Part shown: piece after piece, positions 1 to 38,371 of the stretch
Numbering within the stretch: position 1 is the stretch's first letter
How the letters are laid out: the number at the start of each line of letters is the position of its first letter
Virus genome (UHGV): UHGV-0205415
Source: a virus
Strand: one strand, 5' to 3'
Length of the DNA: 39,456 nt
Notes under the pieces: model-generated
Seen by the model: only the letters and a program-made list of their open reading frames with translations
What the model was told of the DNA's origin: nothing
Databases searched by the model: none
Program-made: the position numbers and the translations under genes

Positions 1-59
1 TGACGTAGTTAAGTTGTTTGAGTTTGATACATTCGAAAGCCCAGCAAAGGAGGCAACCA

Positions 60-740
60 GTGAGCAAGATTGATTATCAAAAGCTTCGTGAAATCGCTGA
101 AAAAACAAAAATTGCTGGTGAAGCACCTGTAATGCCCTTCGATCAGCGAATTAATGCGCTTAACGATTTTATGAAGCACTTTTCGCCAGATATCGCGCTG
201 GCACTACTGGATGAACGGGAAAGAAACCAGCAATACATCAAAAGCCGCGACCAGGAGAACGAGGAAATTGCGCTAACGGTAGGGAAGCTGCGTGTTGAGC
301 TGGAAGCAGCAAAAAAGCGCATAGCAGAACTGGAAGCCGAACCTGTAAGCCAAGCTTACAACTTGGCAGAATTAATCGAAGGCATGGAAGTTTCCATTGA
401 TGTAAGCACTTGTGATGCTGATTTAGGTAATCGCTATTTCGGCACCGTCACCGAGGCGTTAGAACTTGATACTGCCAAGAATGGTCACATCCTCCTGGTT
501 CAGGACGCAGAGCCAAACTTCGATGTAAATGGCAACTCTCCGGTAACTCCGGATGCCTGGATAAGCTGTAGTGAGCGAATGCCGAACGACGCGCAGTGGT
601 GCGTAGTTGACGCCGAAGGCGGGTATTACGTGCAATGCTGGTCTGAAGGTCAAGGATGGCTTGGAGATGACATCAGCCTACGTGATTGCGATGTAATCAG
701 ATGGATGCCGCTACCAGAGCCGCCGCAGGAGATGAAGTGA
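60..740 (+). CDS. Ead/Ea22-like early protein with C-terminal DUF551-like motif (WMPLPEPP)
   Basis: ORF 18..740; GTG at 60 preceded by AAGGAGG; coiled-coil N-terminus and C-terminal motif typical of lambdoid Ea22/Ead proteins (recalled). Confidence 0.55.
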   Translation: MSKIDYQKLREIAEKTKIAGEAPVMPFDQRINALNDFMKHFSPDIALALLDERERNQQYIKSRDQENEEIALTVGKLRVELEAAKKRIAELEAEPVSQAYNLAELIEGMEVSIDVSTCDADLGNRYFGTVTEALELDTAKNGHILLVQDAEPNFDVNGNSPVTPDAWISCSERMPNDAQWCVVDAEGGYYVQCWSEGQGWLGDDISLRDCDVIRWMPLPEPPQEMK

Positions 741-2572: not shown

Positions 2573-2821
2573 AATAGCGGGTAAAATATTTCTTACATCT
2601 AAAAAACATCATTCCAATCAATCCCCTGCCGCGCCAAGTAGATGTCTGCAGGGGACACCATTTATCAGTTCGCTCCCATCCGTACTAGTCCGCAAAATCC
2701 CCTGCATATCAAGCCTTCCATAGATTCACAGTTCGTAATGGTTCGCGTCAGATCGTTGACAGCCGCACACCATGACGGGTAAAAAGTGGATAAAATAATT
2801 TTACCCACCGGATTTTTACCC

Positions 2822-3979
2822 ATGCTCACCGTTAAGCAGATTGAAGCAGCAAAGCCGAAAGAAAAACCATACCGCCTTCTCGATGGTAATGGCCTGTACC
2901 TTTATGTTCCTGTATCCGGGAAAAAGGTATGGCAGCTTCGCTACAAGATTGACGGTAAGGAAAAAATACTGACCGTCGGAAAATATCCGCTTATGACTTT
3001 GCAGGAGGCAAGGGATAAAGCATGGACCGCGAGGAAAGACATCTCGGTTGGCATCGATCCGGTAAAAGCGAAAAAGGCTTCGTCTAATAACAATTCCTTT
3101 AGCGCCATTTACAAGGAATGGTACGAGCACAAGAAGCAAGTATGGTCAGTAGGGTATGCGACTGAACTTGCCAAAATGTTTGATGACGACATTTTACCCA
3201 TCATCGGCGGCCTTGAGATTCAGGATATTGAGCCGATGCAACTGCTGGAAGTAATCCGCAGATTTGAAGATCGCGGTGCAATGGAGCGAGCCAACAAAGC
3301 CCGCAGAAGATGCGGCGAGGTTTTCCGTTACGCTATTGTCACCGGAAGGGCTAAATATAACCCAGCACCTGACCTTGCTGACGCCATGAAAGGATACCGC
3401 AAGAAGAACTTCCCGTTTCTTCCAGCAGACCAGATCCCTGCATTCAACAAAGCACTGGCAACATTTTCAGGAAGCATCGTATCGCTCATTGCGACCAAAG
3501 TTTTACGCTACACAGCCCTAAGAACGAAAGAGCTTCGTTCCATGCAATGGAAGAACGTCGATTTTGAAAACAGGATTATCACTATCGACGCCAGTGTGAT
3601 GAAGGGCCGCAAGATTCATGTTGTTCCTATGTCAGACCAGGTGGTTGAACTTCTCACTACGCTAAGCTCCATCACTAAACCAGTATCAGAGTTTGTTTTT
3701 GCCGGGCGCAACGATAAGAAGAAGCCAATCTGCGAGAACGCGGTATTGCTTGTGATCAAACAAATCGGCTATGAGGGTCTGGAAAGCGGTCACGGATTCA
3801 GGCATGAATTCAGCACGATTATGAACGAGCACGAATGGCCTGCCGACGCCATTGAAGTGCAACTGGCACATGCCAACGGCGGTTCTGTGCGCGGGATTTA
3901 CAACCATGCTCAGTATCTCGATAAGCGCAGAGAAATGATGCAGTGGTGGGCGGACTGGCTTGATGAGAAGGTGGAGTGA
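2822..3979 (+). CDS. int: tyrosine site-specific integrase (Arm-binding N-terminal domain type); alternative GTG start at 2786
   Basis: MLTVKQIEAAKPKEKPYRL N-terminus, C-terminal HxxR...Y catalytic region typical of phage integrases. Confidence 0.9.
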   Translation: MLTVKQIEAAKPKEKPYRLLDGNGLYLYVPVSGKKVWQLRYKIDGKEKILTVGKYPLMTLQEARDKAWTARKDISVGIDPVKAKKASSNNNSFSAIYKEWYEHKKQVWSVGYATELAKMFDDDILPIIGGLEIQDIEPMQLLEVIRRFEDRGAMERANKARRRCGEVFRYAIVTGRAKYNPAPDLADAMKGYRKKNFPFLPADQIPAFNKALATFSGSIVSLIATKVLRYTALRTKELRSMQWKNVDFENRIITIDASVMKGRKIHVVPMSDQVVELLTTLSSITKPVSEFVFAGRNDKKKPICENAVLLVIKQIGYEGLESGHGFRHEFSTIMNEHEWPADAIEVQLAHANGGSVRGIYNHAQYLDKRREMMQWWADWLDEKVE

Positions 3980-4059: not shown

Positions 4060-6057
4060 TTATATTGCAGATATTATAAAACATAATAATTCTTCATATC
4101 TTATTCCATATCGCTCACCCCCTTCTATAGATATTCTGCGTTCTCCAGTATCATATTCAATTAATTTTTCATCACCGGATTCTTCATCAAAAATTATCTT
4201 TTTAGCAATTACTGGTTCGTATTCAGTTTCCCATTTATCATAGCAAAAAAGACCATAGTCGTTTGCATCAAGCCCTTCTTCAGCAAATGCTTTATATACA
4301 TCTTGGGCAATAATGCCAAAATGTAATCTAGCATTTTCTCCTTTTTCAATTACTGAATCTATAAATCTAAAACAACAAACCAAACCCTTTATTTTATATG
4401 CAACACGTCTCTCTGCATCAGTAATCGGTCTTTTATCAGTCTTAACTCGACCATCCGATGTGTTAATCGTTGAAGTGCCAGCAAATATTGTATTCCACCT
4501 TCTGGATGCTGAACCGCAATTTCTAGCGTTATCTGTTGCTGGTTGTACCGACGCATCAAAACGAGCATAATTATTCTCATCAGAAACAGGTCCCATCAAT
4601 CCACTCAAAAAAGGGAGCCCGCTCTGATTAGCAATTATTAATTGGTTGTCACCTGAAGAAATTGCCGAACCGGCATTGGTTCCGATAAATATATTACCTG
4701 TTCCAGAGCTTAACGATCTACCAGATCTATATCCAAGCATTACATTGTTACTTGCCGAACCAATAGAATTAAGTGAGTCGGCTCCTACTGCGACATTATT
4801 CATCCCTGTAGATGTGCCTGTATAAGGGTTATCTATAGAAGAAATCCCTCTTCCTGATCCGCTACCAATATATGTATTGTTATCTCCATTTGTAATCTCC
4901 CTTCCGGATGCATTGCCTATAAATGTGTTATTATTTAGAATGTTATAAGACAACCTTTTGCCTGATTGGTCTGTAACAATTCCAGCTCGCATTCCAGCCG
5001 CTCGACCTATTGCAACATTACCACTACCAGTATGAAGTTGTTGTAATGCACTTGATCCTACTGCAACATTAAAATTTCCTTCTTTATTTTCATTTAGGGC
5101 ATCGCGCCCAATTCCAATTATGTTACTAGCTGTGGTTGATTTTTTGCACGCATTCACACCAATTGCTACAATCTCAGTGCCAGTGCATGGCGATGTATCT
5201 GTGAGATCGTCTTGAAGGGTATCACCTGATAATACACCTGTCCCAATTGCTGTAATGTTATTGCCCGTGCTAATGTTTCTTCCTGCACTTGGTCCAATCG
5301 CAACAACTTGCCCGGATATATCATTTCCATTATATATCTTGCCAGCATCAAAACCAAAAAAAACATTTCCAATTGTCTGAGCAGGATTTGCAAATGGAAT
5401 AGGTTCGTCTCCTTTACTTTGTATTATTTTACCAGGGCCATAAAATTTTCCATTAATATAGTTCTCAATTAAATAAGTACCTTGTGGAACATAAACACCG
5501 TCAGGTGAAACTGAAGATGCATAGGAAAATATATGTGTTGCGTCAATATTGCCATTAACAATGTCGCTAACATCTTCATGTTTTACAAAATCAAGAATAC
5601 TAATATTCTCTGCATTTTTATCATGCTGTGTTCGTTTTGTAGAATTAATTAAAGGTTGTTTTACTGTGATTAATGAATCACCAAGCCCATCATCTGAACT
5701 TAAAAGTTCTTGCCTTAACTGATCCGGGTCATACTTCAGCACATTAGGAAAATAAAACTGCTGCGCACCATATGCATCATAAACAGCCATAGAATGGCCT
5801 TGCACAGTTACGAACTTGGCAATCTGTCCGTTATATACCGGATATCCGGCAGCGTTAATGATTATTGGTTGCGAAACAGGAATGTGAGAACCGTCTTCGT
5901 TCTCTACATAAACCTGAATCTGGTTTTCAGGATTTACCGGGTCAGTGTCAATTTTACCGATATAAATTTTGCCATTGGCTACGGCTTTAAAAGAACGCGC
6001 CATAGTGAAGAGTTGCGAAGGCATACTCACTACAACATTGGCTGTAATGTCTGTCAT
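4060..6057 (-). CDS. tailspike protein: P22 gp9-like head-binding N-terminus, repeat-rich central domain, C-terminal S74-type intramolecular chaperone domain
   Basis: N-terminus [11 protein letters not shown]...[11 protein letters not shown]...VTVQGHSMA...LKYDPDQ matches P22 tailspike head-binding domain (recalled); C-terminus resembles autoproteolytic chaperone of endosialidase/tail fibers. Confidence 0.85.
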
Positions 6058-29596: not shown

Positions 29597-32062
29597 TCAG
29601 AATCCTCCTTTCTTCTTGGACTGCGGTTCCTCGCGTTCACGGCGGCGCATTTCAGCAGACTGTTGGTCTGTGTCATAAATAGCGCCATTTGCCTGAATGC
29701 AATACACCGTGCCGGTATTGCCATGACGATTGAGACGAAGGATTAGTTCGGTTTCACCAGGTGGAACACTGTCATCAAAAGCACCTTCACGATGGATCCC
29801 CACCCAATAATCGCAATCCTGTTCAATCTGCCCTGTATCTCGTGAGTCACTTGGTAATGGGCGTTTATTGGTTCGGCTTTCCAGTGCGCGGTTAAGCTGC
29901 GTCAGAAGCACAACAACGCAATCAAGCTCTTTGGCAAGGTTCTTCAGTCCTTTGGTGATCATGCCGTAAGCAAGGTCGTTGCGATCGGCCTTCTCAGCGG
30001 TCATTAGTGTCAGGTAATCGACCAGAATCATGCCAACACATCCTTTTTCTCGCTTGATTCGACGGCTTTCGCTAACGATTTGAGCCAGAGATAATCCCGG
30101 CGTGTCGTCGATGTAAAGCAGGTCGATTTCACTCAAACGATTAGCTGTTTCGATCGCCCTGTTGAAGTCACCATCGTAATCACCCTGATAGCCGTCATCA
30201 GCGTCATTTGTCGCCGGAAGGTAAAAAATATTCGGGTTAACACCAGACTTCTGCCCTACCAGTTTTTCCAGTATCTGATCACCTGGCATTTCAAGGCTGA
30301 ACATCAGAGCGGGCTTTTTCTCATGCACTGCGCAGTTGATTGCCATCTGGCTGTATAGCGTGGTGTTGTGGGTTAGAATGTATCCGTCAGTTGCATACAA
30401 ATGTCTCTCGTGGGATACCATGATGCAAATGCACTCTTCACGTCCAATATACTCAACCGACGTGATAACAGGCGCACTTGTTTTGATGCGTTTTGCAGTG
30501 AATTTTTGCTTCAGGCGTGGAGATTTTATGTGTGATAGAACCTCATCAGGCAACCTGATTGCGCAAATATGGGCATCCATACCTTTGCGCATTTCTCCCT
30601 TATAACTGAATTTCGGCTCCTGTTTGGTTGTCATACGACACACGCCACCAAGAGAATGCACCAGCCGCTTTACACCATCTGACAGGAACTTGCTTGCCGA
30701 GCTAAAGCGCAGGGCATTATTTCCTTCAACCCAACCATCGGTTTCAAGTAATCCGCATAGAACATCAATACGAGTTTGCTTATCAGCAGAAAAAATAATA
30801 TCCGGGATAATTTTAATCTCTGACATCCGGCCGTAGATACCAAGCCGTTGCATAACCCGCGTAAGAGATAATTTGCGGCTAAACTTGTGAGATAGGGAGT
30901 AATCGCAGCCAGAAACATGCCTGACTTCAATATCGTCACCCACTTCAGATCTTACTCGCTCAATGATGTATGGTTCCGTCATGCTGATTCGTGGCGTACC
31001 TGCAAGATTTCCATCGCCAAGTAACGCACCTAACAGCCATGGGCTAATCCCTAAATCAACAGGCAATCCGAAGTCACCGCTAATACCAGGAACATGAATG
31101 CGGCTTTGATAGCGAACGCATTCCATCATGTCCCGTAGGCGGCAGGTGTCTACAACATCAACGCCACCGGTAATACGGTTACTATGAATTTCCCACAAAT
31201 GATCATCCGCGCAATCAACGGTTCTTCCGTCAGAGAACGTAACTCGGTAAATATCTCGCTCCCCTTGAGGAAAAACTCCAGACACGAATGATGGTTGTCC
31301 ATCCACTGATGCTAGGGAATCTCCAACACATACGTCACGAAATGTTGTCCATGAACCATCAGCAAGCAAAATGCGTGAATTAAGCGGTTGCGCTTTCCCC
31401 ATCTTAGGGCGAGCGCCAATGACAAACAGAGAGCCTTTCACCAGACCTTTCGGTGACAGCATCCTGTCCAGCGATGGGATCCCTGTGCTCATTCCTCGTT
31501 GTTCGCCTGACGGGTCAAATCGCTTCTCAAGGTCGCTAACCCAGTCTTCCATGACCTCACCAAATGAGCGAAGGCCGCGACGCGATCCGGTTTTTGCATG
31601 GTCTGTCAGTTGCGTGAAAATCGCCTGAATAGCTTCGTACTTCTGCGTTGCAGTCATTCCGTTGCGGGAATAGAGCAATTCCGTCGCTTCAGTCATGCGG
31701 TTGATGGCGTAGCGTTCCATTGCGGTTTCACGAACCTGCATTGCATAGGCAACGATGTTTGCTGCGCTTGGCGTGTTCTTTGCGATCTCAGCGATATAAG
31801 CAAAACCGCCAACAGACGCCGTTAACGATTTACGCTCCAGTTCATCGAAAAGCGTCAGGCCATCTACTGGCTTTTGCTCCCGGTGCATTCTGGTTATTTC
31901 TTCGAAAAGGATTTTGTGTGGTCGGCAGTAAAATGAATCAGGCTTCAGCATCGCCAGAACTTTCTGGACGCGCTCACTGCTGTCATCATCCAGAAGCAAT
32001 CCACCAATCACCGCCTGCTCTGCCTCGATGCTATGGGGCGGCGCATAAAAATTATCGGTCAT
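29597..32062 (-). CDS. replicative DnaB-family helicase interrupted by an intein
   Basis: ORF 29597..32077; ATG at 32062 after GAGGGTG; DnaB motifs GARPKMGK ... TTLYSQMAINCAV ... LMFSLEMP flank a 343-aa insertion. Confidence 0.85.
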   Translation of the reverse strand: MTDNFYAPPHSIEAEQAVIGGLLLDDDSSERVQKVLAMLKPDSFYCRPHKILFEEITRMHREQKPVDGLTLFDELERKSLTASVGGFAYIAEIAKNTPSAANIVAYAMQVRETAMERYAINRMTEATELLYSRNGMTATQKYEAIQAIFTQLTDHAKTGSRRGLRSFGEVMEDWVSDLEKRFDPSGEQRGMSTGIPSLDRMLSPKGLVKGSLFVIGARPKMGKAQPLNSRILLADGSWTTFRDVCVGDSLASVDGQPSFVSGVFPQGERDIYRVTFSDGRTVDCADDHLWEIHSNRITGGVDVVDTCRLRDMMECVRYQSRIHVPGISGDFGLPVDLGISPWLLGALLGDGNLAGTPRISMTEPYIIERVRSEVGDDIEVRHVSGCDYSLSHKFSRKLSLTRVMQRLGIYGRMSEIKIIPDIIFSADKQTRIDVLCGLLETDGWVEGNNALRFSSASKFLSDGVKRLVHSLGGVCRMTTKQEPKFSYKGEMRKGMDAHICAIRLPDEVLSHIKSPRLKQKFTAKRIKTSAPVITSVEYIGREECICIMVSHERHLYATDGYILTHNTTLYSQMAINCAVHEKKPALMFSLEMPGDQILEKLVGQKSGVNPNIFYLPATNDADDGYQGDYDGDFNRAIETANRLSEIDLLYIDDTPGLSLAQIVSESRRIKREKGCVGMILVDYLTLMTAEKADRNDLAYGMITKGLKNLAKELDCVVVLLTQLNRALESRTNKRPLPSDSRDTGQIEQDCDYWVGIHREGAFDDSVPPGETELILRLNRHGNTGTVYCIQANGAIYDTDQQSAEMRRREREEPQSKKKGGF
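30365..31393 (-). mobile_element. intein with LAGLIDADG homing endonuclease motifs inserted in helicase Walker A (P-loop)
   Basis: Insertion between GK and TT of P-loop; ends in THN with Thr as +1 residue; LLGALLGDGN and LCGLLETDGW motifs; begins with Ala (no Cys/Ser nucleophile). Confidence 0.75.
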
Positions 32063-32951
32063 CGTGTTCACCCTCACGAACTTTCAGGTAGGTATTATCG
32101 TTAAGCAGGAAATCAAATCCCTTTTTGTGCCAGACGGTTCCGCGCTGATGGTTTGGGCGCTCTTCGAACATCCATCGGCAATTTTCGCCTACGTAGCTCA
32201 AATAATTTCTCCAGTCCTGCATCGTGAACCCATGCCCGTCAAGCTGGCGGGTTATCACTCCGGCTTTGCGCCAGAACGTTCGGATCTGGTTTTTACGCTT
32301 GTCATTCAGTGCGCGGATTTTTGGCGCTTCAGGAAGGATTTCGTGGTAAGCATCGACAACATCCTGACAGCTAACGGAAGGTTTTTTCTTGTCAGACTTT
32401 TTGTCTGCTGCGGTACTCTCTAATACGTCAGTATTAGAGATAATATTATTATATTCTTTATCTGTGGTAATTTGCTGGTAATCTGCTGGTACAGTATTGC
32501 TTGCAGGCATTGGTATTGCTGGCTTTGAGGTGGTAATTTGCTGGTAATCTGCTGGTACAAAATTTGACTGATAATCGTCATATTTCTCTACCGAGAAAAC
32601 TGAGAATTTACCGTGTGAAACCCAGTCAATCATGCCGAGTTTTTTGAACTTTCTAAGCAGGTACTGAACGCGATCTGGTTTGAGTCCTGTTTCAAACGCC
32701 AGAGAGTTTCTACCGCCAAGTAGCTTCCCTCTGCCTACCAGAATTTCTCCTGCGTCAGTCATTACATACTCAGGCGTATGCTTTGCTTTGAGGATTAAGT
32801 GAACCCACAGATGCGCAGCTTCTGCGTCCTTGTAAAACGGCACATCCATAATTTTACGGTGCAGCAAGGCATACCCCTTACCGCTGCTTTGATGCGGTTG
32901 TTGTAGCCTTCTGGCCTCTCTGGCTTCGGCTAGATTAGATATGTTACTCAT
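32052..32951 (-). CDS. replication initiator (O / P22 gp18-like) containing origin iterons
   Basis: Position upstream of helicase; internal DNA iterons encode repeated peptide [10 protein letters not shown]. Confidence 0.6.
32420..32565. repeat. candidate origin of replication: two identical 29-bp repeats (32465..32493, 32531..32559) built from TGCTGGTA-type iterons plus adjacent AT-rich tract
   Basis: Direct repeats and AT-rich stretch 32425..32460 read from sequence. Confidence 0.6.
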
Positions 32952-35283: not shown

Positions 35284-35583
35284 ATGACAGTAGTCATTAC
35301 ATATCTGGCTGACGATAACGCCAGAAATCGCCGCAGAGCACGCAGACAGGATCAACGTGAACAGGCAATGCAAGAACAGCGACTGGCGCGAAAAATTGCG
35401 CTAAAGCTCTCTGGTTGCGTCAGAGCAGACAAAGCAGCATCACTCGGAAGCCTTCGCTGCAAGAAGACAGAAGAAGTCGAGAGTAAACAGAATCGTATTT
35501 ACTACCGCAAGCCACGCAGTGAAATGGGTGTGACTTGTGTTGGTCGCCAGAAAATGAAATTAGGCAGCAAACCACTTATTTGA
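35284..35583 (+). CDS. N: N-like antiterminator
   Basis: Arg-rich motif NARNRRRARRQ near N-terminus, C-terminus GVTCVGRQKMKLGSKPLI like lambda N; GGAGG RBS. Confidence 0.75.
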   Translation: MTVVITYLADDNARNRRRARRQDQREQAMQEQRLARKIALKLSGCVRADKAASLGSLRCKKTEEVESKQNRIYYRKPRSEMGVTCVGRQKMKLGSKPLI

Positions 35584-35594
35584 GAGGAATTAAT

Positions 35595-36218
35595 ATGTCA
35601 TCAATCCGCTTAACTACGAGAATGAAAGAGGAAATCGCTCGTAACGCTTTAATTAAGTCTGGGGTTTTCACTGAACTTGAAGAAGTAACAAAGTTAAAGA
35701 ACCAGCTTGCACTTGACGCCAGAGTTATTGCGTTTGGCGGTAAAAAGAAAACTGAGGAAGTGGATCAGTTATCATCCAAGTTGGTAGCTATAAGTGAAGA
35801 ACTTGAAAAGATGGGATGTTCATTTTACTCATACGATGTTCGTTCTACTTCAATTTATCTTACTGTATCTGGCAGAAGGGTTGGATGGCATTCATATGGG
35901 AAAGACGGCAACGGCGAAGATATATTGCTCCCTACTCCGACAAAAGATAAATGCATGTTTGACGCAGAGCACGAAATAACAAAAAGGTTTGATGAAATCT
36001 GCGCATTACAACAAAAATTTGAAGCCAAGAAAAAGGATATCGAATCAAATGTATGGGCTGCTTTAAACTCAGTCACAACAGTTAAGCGACTCATTGAAGT
36101 TTGGCCTGAAAGCAAAGAATTGCTACCAAAAGAAGCAGATAAAGCAAGTGCAGCACTTCCTGCTTTACGGGTAGAAGATTTGAATAAGATGATTGGACTT
36201 CCTTCCGAGGCCGCGTAG
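35595..36218 (+). CDS. hypothetical 207-aa protein directly downstream of N
   Basis: ORF 35535..36218; ATG at 35595 after GAGAGGA; no family recognised. Confidence 0.5.
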   Translation: MSSIRLTTRMKEEIARNALIKSGVFTELEEVTKLKNQLALDARVIAFGGKKKTEEVDQLSSKLVAISEELEKMGCSFYSYDVRSTSIYLTVSGRRVGWHSYGKDGNGEDILLPTPTKDKCMFDAEHEITKRFDEICALQQKFEAKKKDIESNVWAALNSVTTVKRLIEVWPESKELLPKEADKASAALPALRVEDLNKMIGLPSEAA

Positions 36219-36714: not shown

Positions 36715-37006
36715 TGATAAGCGTGAAATATCGCAAATAATCGCAAGTTTTACTGATGAAGATTACGAGCGAATCAACAGTGAAGTTGATCGTCTCTGCA
36801 AACGTTGCGACCCAATAAGCGAAATGCTTCGCTCATATAAACCAGATGAACACACTAAGGACGCTATCGACTGGCTGGAAGATGATGACTGTAACTATCA
36901 GGAAAAAGCCGCTGAATGGTTCTGGGATGCAATAACCGAAAGAGTTAAGGCTGAATATGCCTTCGCAATATTCAAACGCAGACACATTTATGGAGAAGCA
37001 GCATGA
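36695..37006 (+). CDS. hypothetical protein
   Basis: AGGAGA RBS 5 nt before ATG; ORF track. Confidence 0.45.
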   Translation: MMILTLNDKREISQIIASFTDEDYERINSEVDRLCKRCDPISEMLRSYKPDEHTKDAIDWLEDDDCNYQEKAAEWFWDAITERVKAEYAFAIFKRRHIYGEAA

Positions 37007-37905
37007 GCAATATCGTTGAATTCGTTAAACAGCAGGAGCAGTTATTCTGCGGAGCATTGACTGAACAGACGGTGACATGGGCTAAGGAAAGCCAGTTTGC
37101 AATTCAGTATTTCCAGAAAAATGATTACCTGGCTAAAACGGCACTGGCAAATCCAACCAGTGCACAGAACGCCATCATCAATGTTGCGGCGATCGGCATC
37201 ACCTTAAACCCGGCCAGCAAACTGGCTTATCTGGTTCCGCGCGACGGCATGGTTTGCCTTGATATCAGCTATATGGGATTACTTCATCTTGCGCAATCGA
37301 CAGGCTCAATTAAGTGGGGGCAATGCAAACTGGTGTACTCAAACGACACCTATGAATCAAATGGCCTTGATTCAGCACCAACTCACAAATACAACGCATT
37401 TGGAGAGCGAGGCTCTATTGTTGGTGGTTATTGCACGGTAAAAACAGCAGATGGTGACTACCTGACTGAAGAAATGAGTCTGGCAGAAATTAAAGCAGTG
37501 GAAGCAACGAGCAAGGCAAAGAATGGACCGTGGAAAACATTCTGGGAAGAGATGGCGCGTAAAACAATAGTTAAACGCGCCAGCAAATACTGGCCTAAAG
37601 CCCAGCGACTGGATAATGCCATTCACCTGCTTAACGAAGATGAAGGTATGCATCAGGAACCAGTTATGCCGCACAAATCAGAGGAAGATATCCGCGAAGA
37701 TGAACGGAAACGCCAGCAGGAAATAATGGATAAAGCACAACTTCTTTGCGATGAAATGGCTCAGGCAGAAAACATGGATGATTTGAAGCGATATTTTGCA
37801 GAAGCATATCGCCTGACATCTGGAATGAAATTGCAGCAGAACGTACAAGCCATTTACATAGAATGCAAAGCGAAACTGGAGGTTGCCAGTGAGCAAACTG
37901 TATGA
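37003..37905 (+). CDS. recT: RecT-family single-strand annealing recombinase
   Basis: RecT-like pattern NPTSAQNAIINVAAIGITLNP...AYLVP...GGYC (recalled). Confidence 0.75.
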   Translation: MSNIVEFVKQQEQLFCGALTEQTVTWAKESQFAIQYFQKNDYLAKTALANPTSAQNAIINVAAIGITLNPASKLAYLVPRDGMVCLDISYMGLLHLAQSTGSIKWGQCKLVYSNDTYESNGLDSAPTHKYNAFGERGSIVGGYCTVKTADGDYLTEEMSLAEIKAVEATSKAKNGPWKTFWEEMARKTIVKRASKYWPKAQRLDNAIHLLNEDEGMHQEPVMPHKSEEDIREDERKRQQEIMDKAQLLCDEMAQAENMDDLKRYFAEAYRLTSGMKLQQNVQAIYIECKAKLEVASEQTV

Positions 37906-38371
37906 AATAGCCAATGAATACGCAAAGCTGATGGATTCAGATTTAGAGCCAGAGATGATTGCTGACACAATAGAAGGCATGGAAGGAGAATTTACCGATA
38001 AAATAGAGCAACTTCTTGCCATTATTAAAAATGAATCTGGTTATGCTGAACGCCTCAAGGACGAGGCAAAGTCACTGAATGAACGAGCAGCAGTAATTCA
38101 AAATAAGATTGATAGCATTATGGCATATATAGCCTCATCGCTTGAAATGGTTGGCAAGAAAAAGATTAGAGCAGGTATTCACCAGGTAACAATCCGCAAA
38201 CCGTCAGAAACTGTAGAAATCATCGACTCAAGCGCCCTTCCTCCTGAATACGTTGAGTTTGAAACGACAATTAAAGCCGACAAGTTGGCAATCAAGCACC
38301 AACTAAAAGCAGGAATAAATATCCCAGGCGCTCAACTCAAGGTTGGGAAACCTTCACTTCTTATCAAATAA
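37889..38371 (+). CDS. Gp157-like protein (tentative)
   Basis: ORF 37883..38371; GTG at 37889 six nt after GGAGG gives N-terminus SKLYEIANEY typical of Gp157-family proteins (recalled, weak). Confidence 0.45.
   Translation: MSKLYEIANEYAKLMDSDLEPEMIADTIEGMEGEFTDKIEQLLAIIKNESGYAERLKDEAKSLNERAAVIQNKIDSIMAYIASSLEMVGKKKIRAGIHQVTIRKPSETVEIIDSSALPPEYVEFETTIKADKLAIKHQLKAGINIPGAQLKVGKPSLLIK

Follow-up and report, generated by a model that had tools for sequence, protein, structure and literature searches.

A predicted class 3 intein with a LAGLIDADG endonuclease domain in the P-loop of the DnaB-type helicase of a P22-like temperate phage

The virus genome UHGV-0205415, a stretch of 39,456 nucleotides (nt) that we call the window, encodes a DnaB-type replicative helicase split by an insertion of 343 amino acids (aa). 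We regard it as probable (roughly 0.82) that this insertion works as a class 3 intein and carries a LAGLIDADG homing endonuclease, situated at the P-loop of the helicase of a complete temperate phage resembling P22, HK620 and CUS-3. Its anatomy and conservation, the selection acting on it and a population signature of mobility were observed directly. A sequence-only reading had placed a class 3-type LAGLIDADG intein in the DnaB Walker A motif, and sequence comparison together with a predicted structure supports this core assignment.

The intein-bearing open reading frame (ORF; 29597..32077, minus strand, a strand that the sequence-only reading had not named) counts 826 aa from a GTG codon. Its probable start is the ATG at 32062, which is preceded by GAGG and gives a protein of 821 aa, in line with the helicase of about 820 aa proposed earlier. 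In a search of NCBIfam profiles the protein matched TIGR03600 phage_DnaB (‘phage replicative helicase, DnaB family’) with 557.8 bits against a cut-off of 498.65, and the Pfam profiles DnaB (E 1e-30) and DnaB_C (E 2e-53) matched both flanks, skipping the insertion. Similarly, E. coli DnaB structures aligned with residues 11-229 and 572-792 of the 826-aa ORF, the N-extein corresponding to residues 25-238 of these structures.

In the protein the junctions read ...VIGARPKMGK/AQPLNSRILLADGSW at the upstream side and YILTHN/TTLYSQMAINCAV... at the downstream side (slashes mark the boundaries here and below), the intein beginning with AQPLNS and ending with LTHN, followed by TTLYSQ. The element is thus located between the invariant Lys and Thr of Walker A (GARPKMGK/intein/TTLY), which is the DnaB-b P-loop site described previously (PMC4760082, PMC5050341); insertion between these two residues is the ‘classic’ P-loop position (PMC5050341), named site b in DnaB (PMC4760082). 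The boundaries could be fixed at the nucleotide level. An intein-less form of the same helicase, 98-99% identical in nt, was present in 87 phage records and some 370 E. coli genomes, the alignments consisting of two abutting pieces that lack precisely these 1029 nt. The 87 phage genomes, at 99% nt identity, include VT2-Sakai, Stx1 and Stx2 phages and phages of Salmonella and Shigella. The DNA boundary is unable to slide because at neither end is the base of the insert the same as the extein base beside it, and the placement made from the sequence alone, directly after GARPKMGK and ending in THN before a Thr, proved exact against the intein-less alleles. Removal of the insertion in silico left an intact Walker A and a gene sharing 99% identity with the helicase that VT2-Sakai and other phages carry without an intein. 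Short ORFs found within the intein in other frames or on the opposite strand were taken as chance, because the intein frame is under strong purifying selection. The guanine plus cytosine content, about 46% in the intein and about 50% in the exteins, differed too little to argue for a foreign origin.

Class 3 inteins are defined by a non-nucleophilic residue 1, by Trp B:12, Cys F:4 and Thr G:5, and by a Ser or Thr in the +1 position; in their chemistry, an attack by Cys F:4 on the N-terminal junction gives a branched intermediate peculiar to the class (PMC2807308; PMC3196547). All of these sequence features appear in the insertion (Table 1). Ala1 is positioned by the exact DNA boundary against the intein-less alleles. 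The Trp-Cys-Thr (WCT) triad, which the sequence-only reading had proposed to look for, is present as Trp67, Cys323 and Thr341 and aligns residue for residue with the triads of the DnaB inteins of Mycobacterium smegmatis (Msm DnaBi1, 6bs8) and M. chimaera (Mch DnaB1, 6rix). Cys323, within ECICIMV, falls on Cys118, the catalytic residue of Msm DnaBi1, and on the Cys engineered into gp41-1_WCT, and Cys F:4 was kept in every homologue whose sequence extends to block F. Thr+1 of the intein is at the same time the Thr of Walker A. Searching all PDB chains with the 343 aa returned intein splicing domains at both ends and PI-SceI-type endonucleases in the middle. The overall top sequence match was gp41-1, in both WCT-engineered and natural class 1 forms, and the best natural-intein matches were two class 3 inteins of mycobacterial DnaB, from M. 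smegmatis (6bs8) and M. chimaera (6rix, 6riy). WCT is present in every database homologue. The comparison of the initial Ala with a class 3 mycobacteriophage DnaB intein, made in the sequence-only reading, stood for Ala1 and for the class and failed for the phage precedent, the Bethlehem intein starting with Pro1 (PMC2807308); a precedent for Ala1 is Msm DnaBi1 (PMC6195587).

We then considered the predicted fold. An AlphaFold (AF2) model of the intein, built on an alignment of 23 homologues, reached a pLDDT of 91.3 and a pTM of 0.91. Its best structural matches were intein homing endonucleases, namely PI-SceI (E 3e-17, TMq 0.74), the Tli and Pho VMA inteins and PI-PfuI. Model residues from about 1 to 105 and from 301 to 343 superposed on 6bs8, 6rix, Prp8 and DnaB/DnaE inteins as a HINT fold, and against the class 3 Msm and Mch DnaB inteins the splicing part gave TMt values of 0.80-0.85 (0.85 for 6bs8). 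The modelled insertion would accordingly combine a HINT domain with a LAGLIDADG endonuclease of pseudo-dimeric alpha-beta fold, whose two LAGLIDADG helices each end in a catalytic acidic residue. Both motifs listed from the sequence alone were found, with Asp127 and Asp219 as these residues. The Pfam LAGLIDADG_3 profile scored 25.1 bits against a cut-off of 22.5, and a match to Hom_end_hint remained under its cut-off (20.8 versus 32.1 bits).

The element showed clear purifying selection on the splicing and endonuclease modules. The 821-codon frame was uninterrupted in 21 of 21 copies examined (eight counted for E. coli plus the window, and 13 near-identical ones from IMG/VR). As a comparison allele we used L026 from IMG/VR, in which the intein is 81% identical in nt and 87% in aa: the ratio of nonsynonymous to synonymous substitution (dN/dS) was 0.062 for the whole intein, 0.053 for the N-terminal and 0.031 for the C-terminal splicing part and 0.076 for the endonuclease domain, these ratios being rough with dS at about 1.15, near saturation.

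Recent homing is indicated by the population data. In seven intein-bearing alleles of type A (the helicase type of the window), nucleotide diversity was 0.26% per site in the intein, about 7-fold lower than the 1.74% in the exteins, and the element is therefore much younger than the variation in its host gene. Nearly the same intein, with 3 differences in 1029 nt, was found in a second helicase, type B, the exteins of which are 64-66% identical to type A in nt and 64% in protein, and the variant intein of L026 occupies a third helicase type. The bases next to the insertion carried the most telling signal. In type A, intein-less alleles read GGG AAA/ACG and intein-bearing ones GGG AAA [intein] ACC; in type B, the corresponding sequences were GGT AAA/ACC and GGG AAA [intein] ACC. 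The third base of the Thr+1 codon was the sole extein site separating all intein-bearing from all intein-less type A alleles: the codon was ACC in 22/22 intein-bearing alleles, whatever the helicase type, and ACG in 7/7 intein-less type A alleles, and none of 357 genomes with an uninterrupted site matched the ACC junction perfectly. Thus the GGGAAA and ACC flanks travel with the intein into both backgrounds, as short co-conversion tracts of double-strand-break repair would yield, a pattern hard to obtain through general recombination between genes 64% identical.

The same observations bear on the possibility of an intein that splices with an inactive endonuclease and spreads only via homologous recombination among mosaic lambdoid genomes. 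A dN/dS of 0.076 across the domain, the retention of both LAGLIDADG Asp residues and the roughly 7-fold deficit of intein diversity relative to the exteins all speak against it, as does the move into a helicase of 64-66% nt identity with few exchanged flanking bases, an event rare by homologous recombination and expected from double-strand-break repair. We hence judge this alternative unlikely, even with the support it draws from flanking extein polymorphisms, which are well shuffled between intein-bearing and intein-less alleles as in highly recombining lambdoid phages, and from the many inteins with decayed endonucleases, Msm DnaBi1 having lost its own (PMC6195587).

The distribution of the element was examined in several collections. 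Among 5,426 complete E. coli genomes, the helicase type occurred in 391 and the intein in 18, at no less than 99.6% identity; 16 of these copies resided in type A and 2 in type B, and about 7% of the genomes carry an intein-less target. IMG/VR held 13 more near-identical copies and three more distant ones, and a scan of GTDB species-representative genomes found no close relatives of the intein in the representatives. A public entry named simply ‘helicase DnaB’ is identical to the 821-aa protein; it falls in a cluster of 449 sequences (90% identity) with sources in E. coli, Salmonella Alachua and Shigella boydii. One E. coli genome, ET846 (NZ_CP100895.1; hits H47 and H179), gave two places with the intein query and with the type B helicase query alike, and of these places one (L005) was read. 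Possibly, two of its helicase genes are occupied by the intein, as might come about if the element moved from prophage to prophage in the same cell.

Besides the near-saturated dS, several observations weigh against a functional, homing intein. The element was absent from all 50,697 deposited phage genomes searched and occupied only about 4% of the E. coli copies of this helicase; low occupancy together with this absence fits a recent invader and also a costly one. The co-conversion argument is drawn from 18 intein-bearing and 7 intein-less alleles of type A and from four of each kind in type B, and the type B flank signal could be due in part to shared ancestry. At position 7 of block B the intein has Ala62, where Msm DnaBi1 has Asp and the Bethlehem intein a Ser; Ser62 of the latter is dispensable (PMC2807308). 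The triad alone is no proof of activity, because a class 1 intein given the WCT residues did not splice efficiently (PMC7664689). Finally, truncated or fused variants exist (P0002 and P0011). In P0002 (565 aa, on a contig of 235,726 bp), the N-extein and the first 110 or so intein residues run into a P22-type DNA-stabilisation/head-completion protein (PF11134), a chimera that looks like a large deletion in a decaying prophage, and P0011 (303 aa) is a copy truncated within the intein.

In RefSeq, the annotation pipeline PGAP presents the two exteins as separate pseudogenes (‘incomplete; partial in the middle of a contig’) and leaves the 1029 nt of the intein without any feature; this holds for each of the nine E. 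coli copies inspected (among them L001 3233..5698, L004, L006-L009 433..2898, L005 and L035). This annotation is a systematic artefact and not a lesion: the pseudogene call arises because the pipeline does not model inteins. Taken at face value it would imply a dead helicase, whose insertion has lost the ability to splice, leaving the prophage defective in replication or reliant on another helicase. Such a reading can call on the incomplete flanks themselves, on the absence of the element from isolated phage genomes and on the class 3-like intein of Arthrobacter FB24, experimentally a pseudogene (PMC3196547). The latter, however, is without Cys F:4 and His B:10, whereas all catalytic residues are present here, the frame is open in every copy examined, the splicing blocks are under strong purifying selection and the exteins are 99% identical to working helicases. 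We consider a dead helicase very improbable. That the insertion is a permanent domain never excised, for instance a recruited nuclease, deserves next to no credence: apart from the general point that a surface loop could in principle tolerate a large insertion, nothing specific favours it, and this one splits Walker A between its invariant Lys and Thr, has a HINT fold in the model, a terminal His-Asn and Thr+1, and is dispensed with by the same helicase in many phages; the ordinary domain lacking block F and G residues, which the sequence-only reading had kept as its alternative, is excluded by Cys323, Thr341-His342-Asn343 and the modelled intein fold.

The preferred reading, a functional class 3 intein, suggests the following course of events, in which we infer the splicing chemistry and the DNA cleavage by homology with studied inteins. 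The 91.7-kDa precursor is predicted to be unable to bind ATP because GARPKMGK is parted from its Thr. Cys323 (F:4), positioned by His65, Trp67 and Thr341, would attack the Lys(-1)-Ala1 peptide bond to form a thioester branched intermediate, and the N-extein would then be handed to the hydroxyl of Thr+1. Cyclisation of Asn343 would free the 38.3-kDa intein, and an O-to-N acyl shift would complete a helicase with an intact GARPKMGKT loop; its predicted mass of 53.5 kDa is close to the 52 kDa or so expected in the sequence-only reading. Lytic replication of the phage would in this manner depend on intein splicing, as the sequence-only reading had soundly reasoned. The free intein, or the precursor, could further act as a homing endonuclease cutting intein-less alleles around ...CCTAAGATGGGGAAA/ACGACGCTATACAGC... 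of phages residing in or infecting the same cell, and repair templated by the occupied copy would bring in the intein plus a few flanking bases.

It is conceivable, if rather doubtful, that the element is more than a passenger. The endonuclease could serve as a weapon between phages, cutting intein-less helicase genes of co-resident or superinfecting lambdoid phages within the DNA that encodes the P-loop. Alternatively, the Cys-rich active site (Cys321-x-Cys323, with Cys61 beside block B) could make splicing redox- or metal-gated and so control helicase maturation, and hence lytic replication after induction, at the post-translational level, a role already proposed for mycobacterial DnaBi1. 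Conditional splicing under oxidative stress has been shown for Msm DnaBi1 (PMC6195587), the redox partner of which, Cys48, is without a counterpart in the intein of the window (Ile48).

A search of a large protein database yielded few homologues of the intein (28). They sit at the same GK/T or GR/T position in DnaB (GRPSMGK/AQPLDA...THN/T), in PhoH-like proteins, in UvrD-like helicases (GAGSGK/AL...THN/T) and in other P-loop proteins, and all have DHLW, Cys F:4 and THN/T. In the PhoH-like ATPases (P0009, P0012, P0014, P0016, P0019, P0021 and P0022) the WCT intein starts with Ser (MRGR/SQPLDA...THN/TF); judged from their sequences, these are apparently class 3-like inteins that retain a potential N-terminal nucleophile, like the few Ser1/Cys1 WCT inteins in PMC2807308.

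In a translated search, 595 of the 50,697 phage genomes showed weaker matches, none above 60% identity; mycobacteriophages account for 284 of the 595. The best were Stx2 phages phi24B, Min27 and relatives, with 46-48% identity over the full length. Their intein counts 342 aa and has Ala1, DHLW, CLCIMV with Cys F:4, THN/T and two LAGLIDADG motifs, including an identical LCGLLETDG. It also occupies a P-loop GK/T site in a lambdoid E. coli phage, that of the replication primase-helicase P (NGHGK/ACPLNEPILLADGTW ... YVATHN/TEVV). The host protein differs: in phi24B and Min27 it is a T7 gp4-like TOPRIM primase fused to a gp4d helicase, here it is a two-domain DnaB-type protein (RPKMGK/TTLY), and the DNA target sites are unlike. 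The phi24B-type intein is found in dozens of deposited phage genomes, many of them Stx2 phages, whereas that of the window is found in none. The phi24B intein was noted in 2012 without classification (PMC3430580). The description of an intein in the helicase P-loop of an enterobacterial lambdoid phage as ‘unusual’ was hence overstated, given dozens of phi24B and Min27 relatives. Literature searches on inteins in P22-like or lambdoid DnaB helicases found no description of the present element. Lambdoid phages of E. coli thus offer a precedent for a class 3-type intein at a helicase P-loop, and the present case differs in its DnaB-type host helicase.

Three further systems are close in other respects. 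Msm DnaBi1 and the M. chimaera DnaB1 intein share the host protein family, the DnaB-b site, Ala1, Cys F:4, THN and even the numbering of His65 and Trp67. They are mini-inteins of about 139-145 aa with Ser+1 and Asp B:7, in an essential chromosomal dnaB, and have lost the endonuclease, whereas the intein of the window keeps an apparently selected one and resides in a phage. The class 3 prototype, the Bethlehem DnaB intein, likewise belongs to a phage helicase and has His65, Trp67, Cys320 (F:4), Thr339 (G:5) and Thr+1, with Thr339 at G:5 implying a size of about 341 aa; it differs in having Pro1 after Gln-1, and its splicing through the block F branched intermediate was demonstrated experimentally (PMC2807308). 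In the 30-52 kb region of Mycobacterium phage Bethlehem AY500153, no tblastn match to our intein was obtained and the annotated DnaB-like gene counts 273 aa; the prototype is either outside this region or absent from AY500153. PI-SceI, the yeast VMA1 intein, is the best overall structural match, with the same bipartite HINT and LAGLIDADG architecture and both motifs aligned. It differs as a class 1 intein (Cys1, Cys+1) of 454 aa, about 15% identical, with an extra DNA-recognition region and a eukaryotic host.

In gene content and gene order, the window corresponds to a complete P22-like genome, with HK620, CUS-3 and mEpX2 as relatives at 95-98% identity in pieces. It comprises Ea22-like genes, integrase, tailspike, structural and lysis genes, the nin region, the helicase, the O-like initiator, cII, cro, cI, an Nmad5 protein and RecT. 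The integrase gene adjoins the tailspike gene, and the two window ends (18..740 and 37003..38371) both fall within one early-left operon (RecT ... Ea22-like). For these reasons the window looks like a complete, circularly permuted 39.5-kb phage genome rather than an integrated prophage with host flanks. Phages of this group bring a DnaB-type helicase of their own, as is established for gene 12 of P22. Intein-less alleles of the present helicase occur in viable phages, for example HK620 and VT2-Sakai. The stop of the O-like gene overlaps the helicase ATG, a typical coupled layout that suggests translational coupling.

Table 1. Coordinates of the helicase gene, its intein and other genes in the window
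Feature	Position	Strand	Remarks
Intein-containing DnaB-type replicative helicase gene	29597..32062	-	821-aa precursor, 91.7 kDa; alternative GTG start at 32077
N-extein	31394..32062	-	223 aa; last residues GARPKMGK (31394..31417), first part of Walker A
Intein	30365..31393	-	343 aa (1029 nt, 38.3 kDa); HINT splicing domain with inserted LAGLIDADG endonuclease domain (predicted)
Block A	31355..31393	-	AQPLNSRILLADG; non-nucleophilic Ala1; AQPL(D/N) kept at the N terminus of homologues in DnaB and other P-loop proteins
Block B core DHLW	31193..31204	-	His65 (B:10), Trp67 (B:12, W of WCT); aligns with HQW of Msm DnaBi1 and Mch DnaB1; DHLW conserved in the homologue alignment
First LAGLIDADG motif, LLGALLGDG	31010..31036	-	Asp127; nearly invariant in the homologue alignment
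Second LAGLIDADG motif, LCGLLETDG	30734..30760	-	Asp219; Pfam LAGLIDADG_3; aligns with PI-SceI residues 298-365
Start of block F, CICIMV	30416..30433	-	Cys323 (F:4, predicted initiating nucleophile); Cys321 at F:2
Block G THN and Thr+1 codon ACC	30362..30373	-	Thr341 (G:5), His342, Asn343; THN/T conserved in homologues
C-extein	29597..30364	-	255 aa and stop; begins TTLYSQ, completes Walker A as GK-T; DnaB_C profile positions 33-243
O-like replication initiator gene, upstream	32052..32951	-	Homologue annotated DNA replication protein O in related prophages
Integrase gene	2786..3979	+	
Tailspike gene	4060..6057	-	P22 head-binding domain and endosialidase chaperone (Peptidase_S74) domain
Nmad5 ORF	35535..36218	+	Nucleotide modification associated domain 5, Pfam match E 6e-71; between cI-side genes and recT

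Among the neighbouring genes, the tailspike had its closest DNA match in the K1-specific phage CUS-3, which has an endosialidase tailspike; the domains and this match suggest a capsule-targeting receptor-binding protein. In some relatives the gene directly downstream of the helicase encodes a free-standing HNH endonuclease (L008 1..351, L012 1..119), and at the same position the window and other relatives have ninB or small ORFs. Judged from these gene contents, this position is probably a second mobile-endonuclease hotspot of the region.

Class 3 inteins in phage helicase P-loops are the textbook setting of the class, and in this sense the biology is not new in kind. What appear new are the distribution in E. 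coli, the systematic pseudogene annotation and the population signs of recent homing, with an intein caught spreading over three helicase lineages with co-conversion tracts a few bases long. The annotation error hides inteins from surveys and mislabels prophages as replication-defective. Should the element be more than a passenger, the weapon and the gated-splicing readings would each offer a genetically tractable, E. coli-native system for intein biology, in a species that surveys listed as without inteins. The value is practical rather than conceptual and resides in an apparently active, currently spreading intein with abundant natural targets: since HK620 and VT2-Sakai carry intein-less ones, homing, the cost of splicing to the phage and conditional splicing would be testable directly in E. 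coli.

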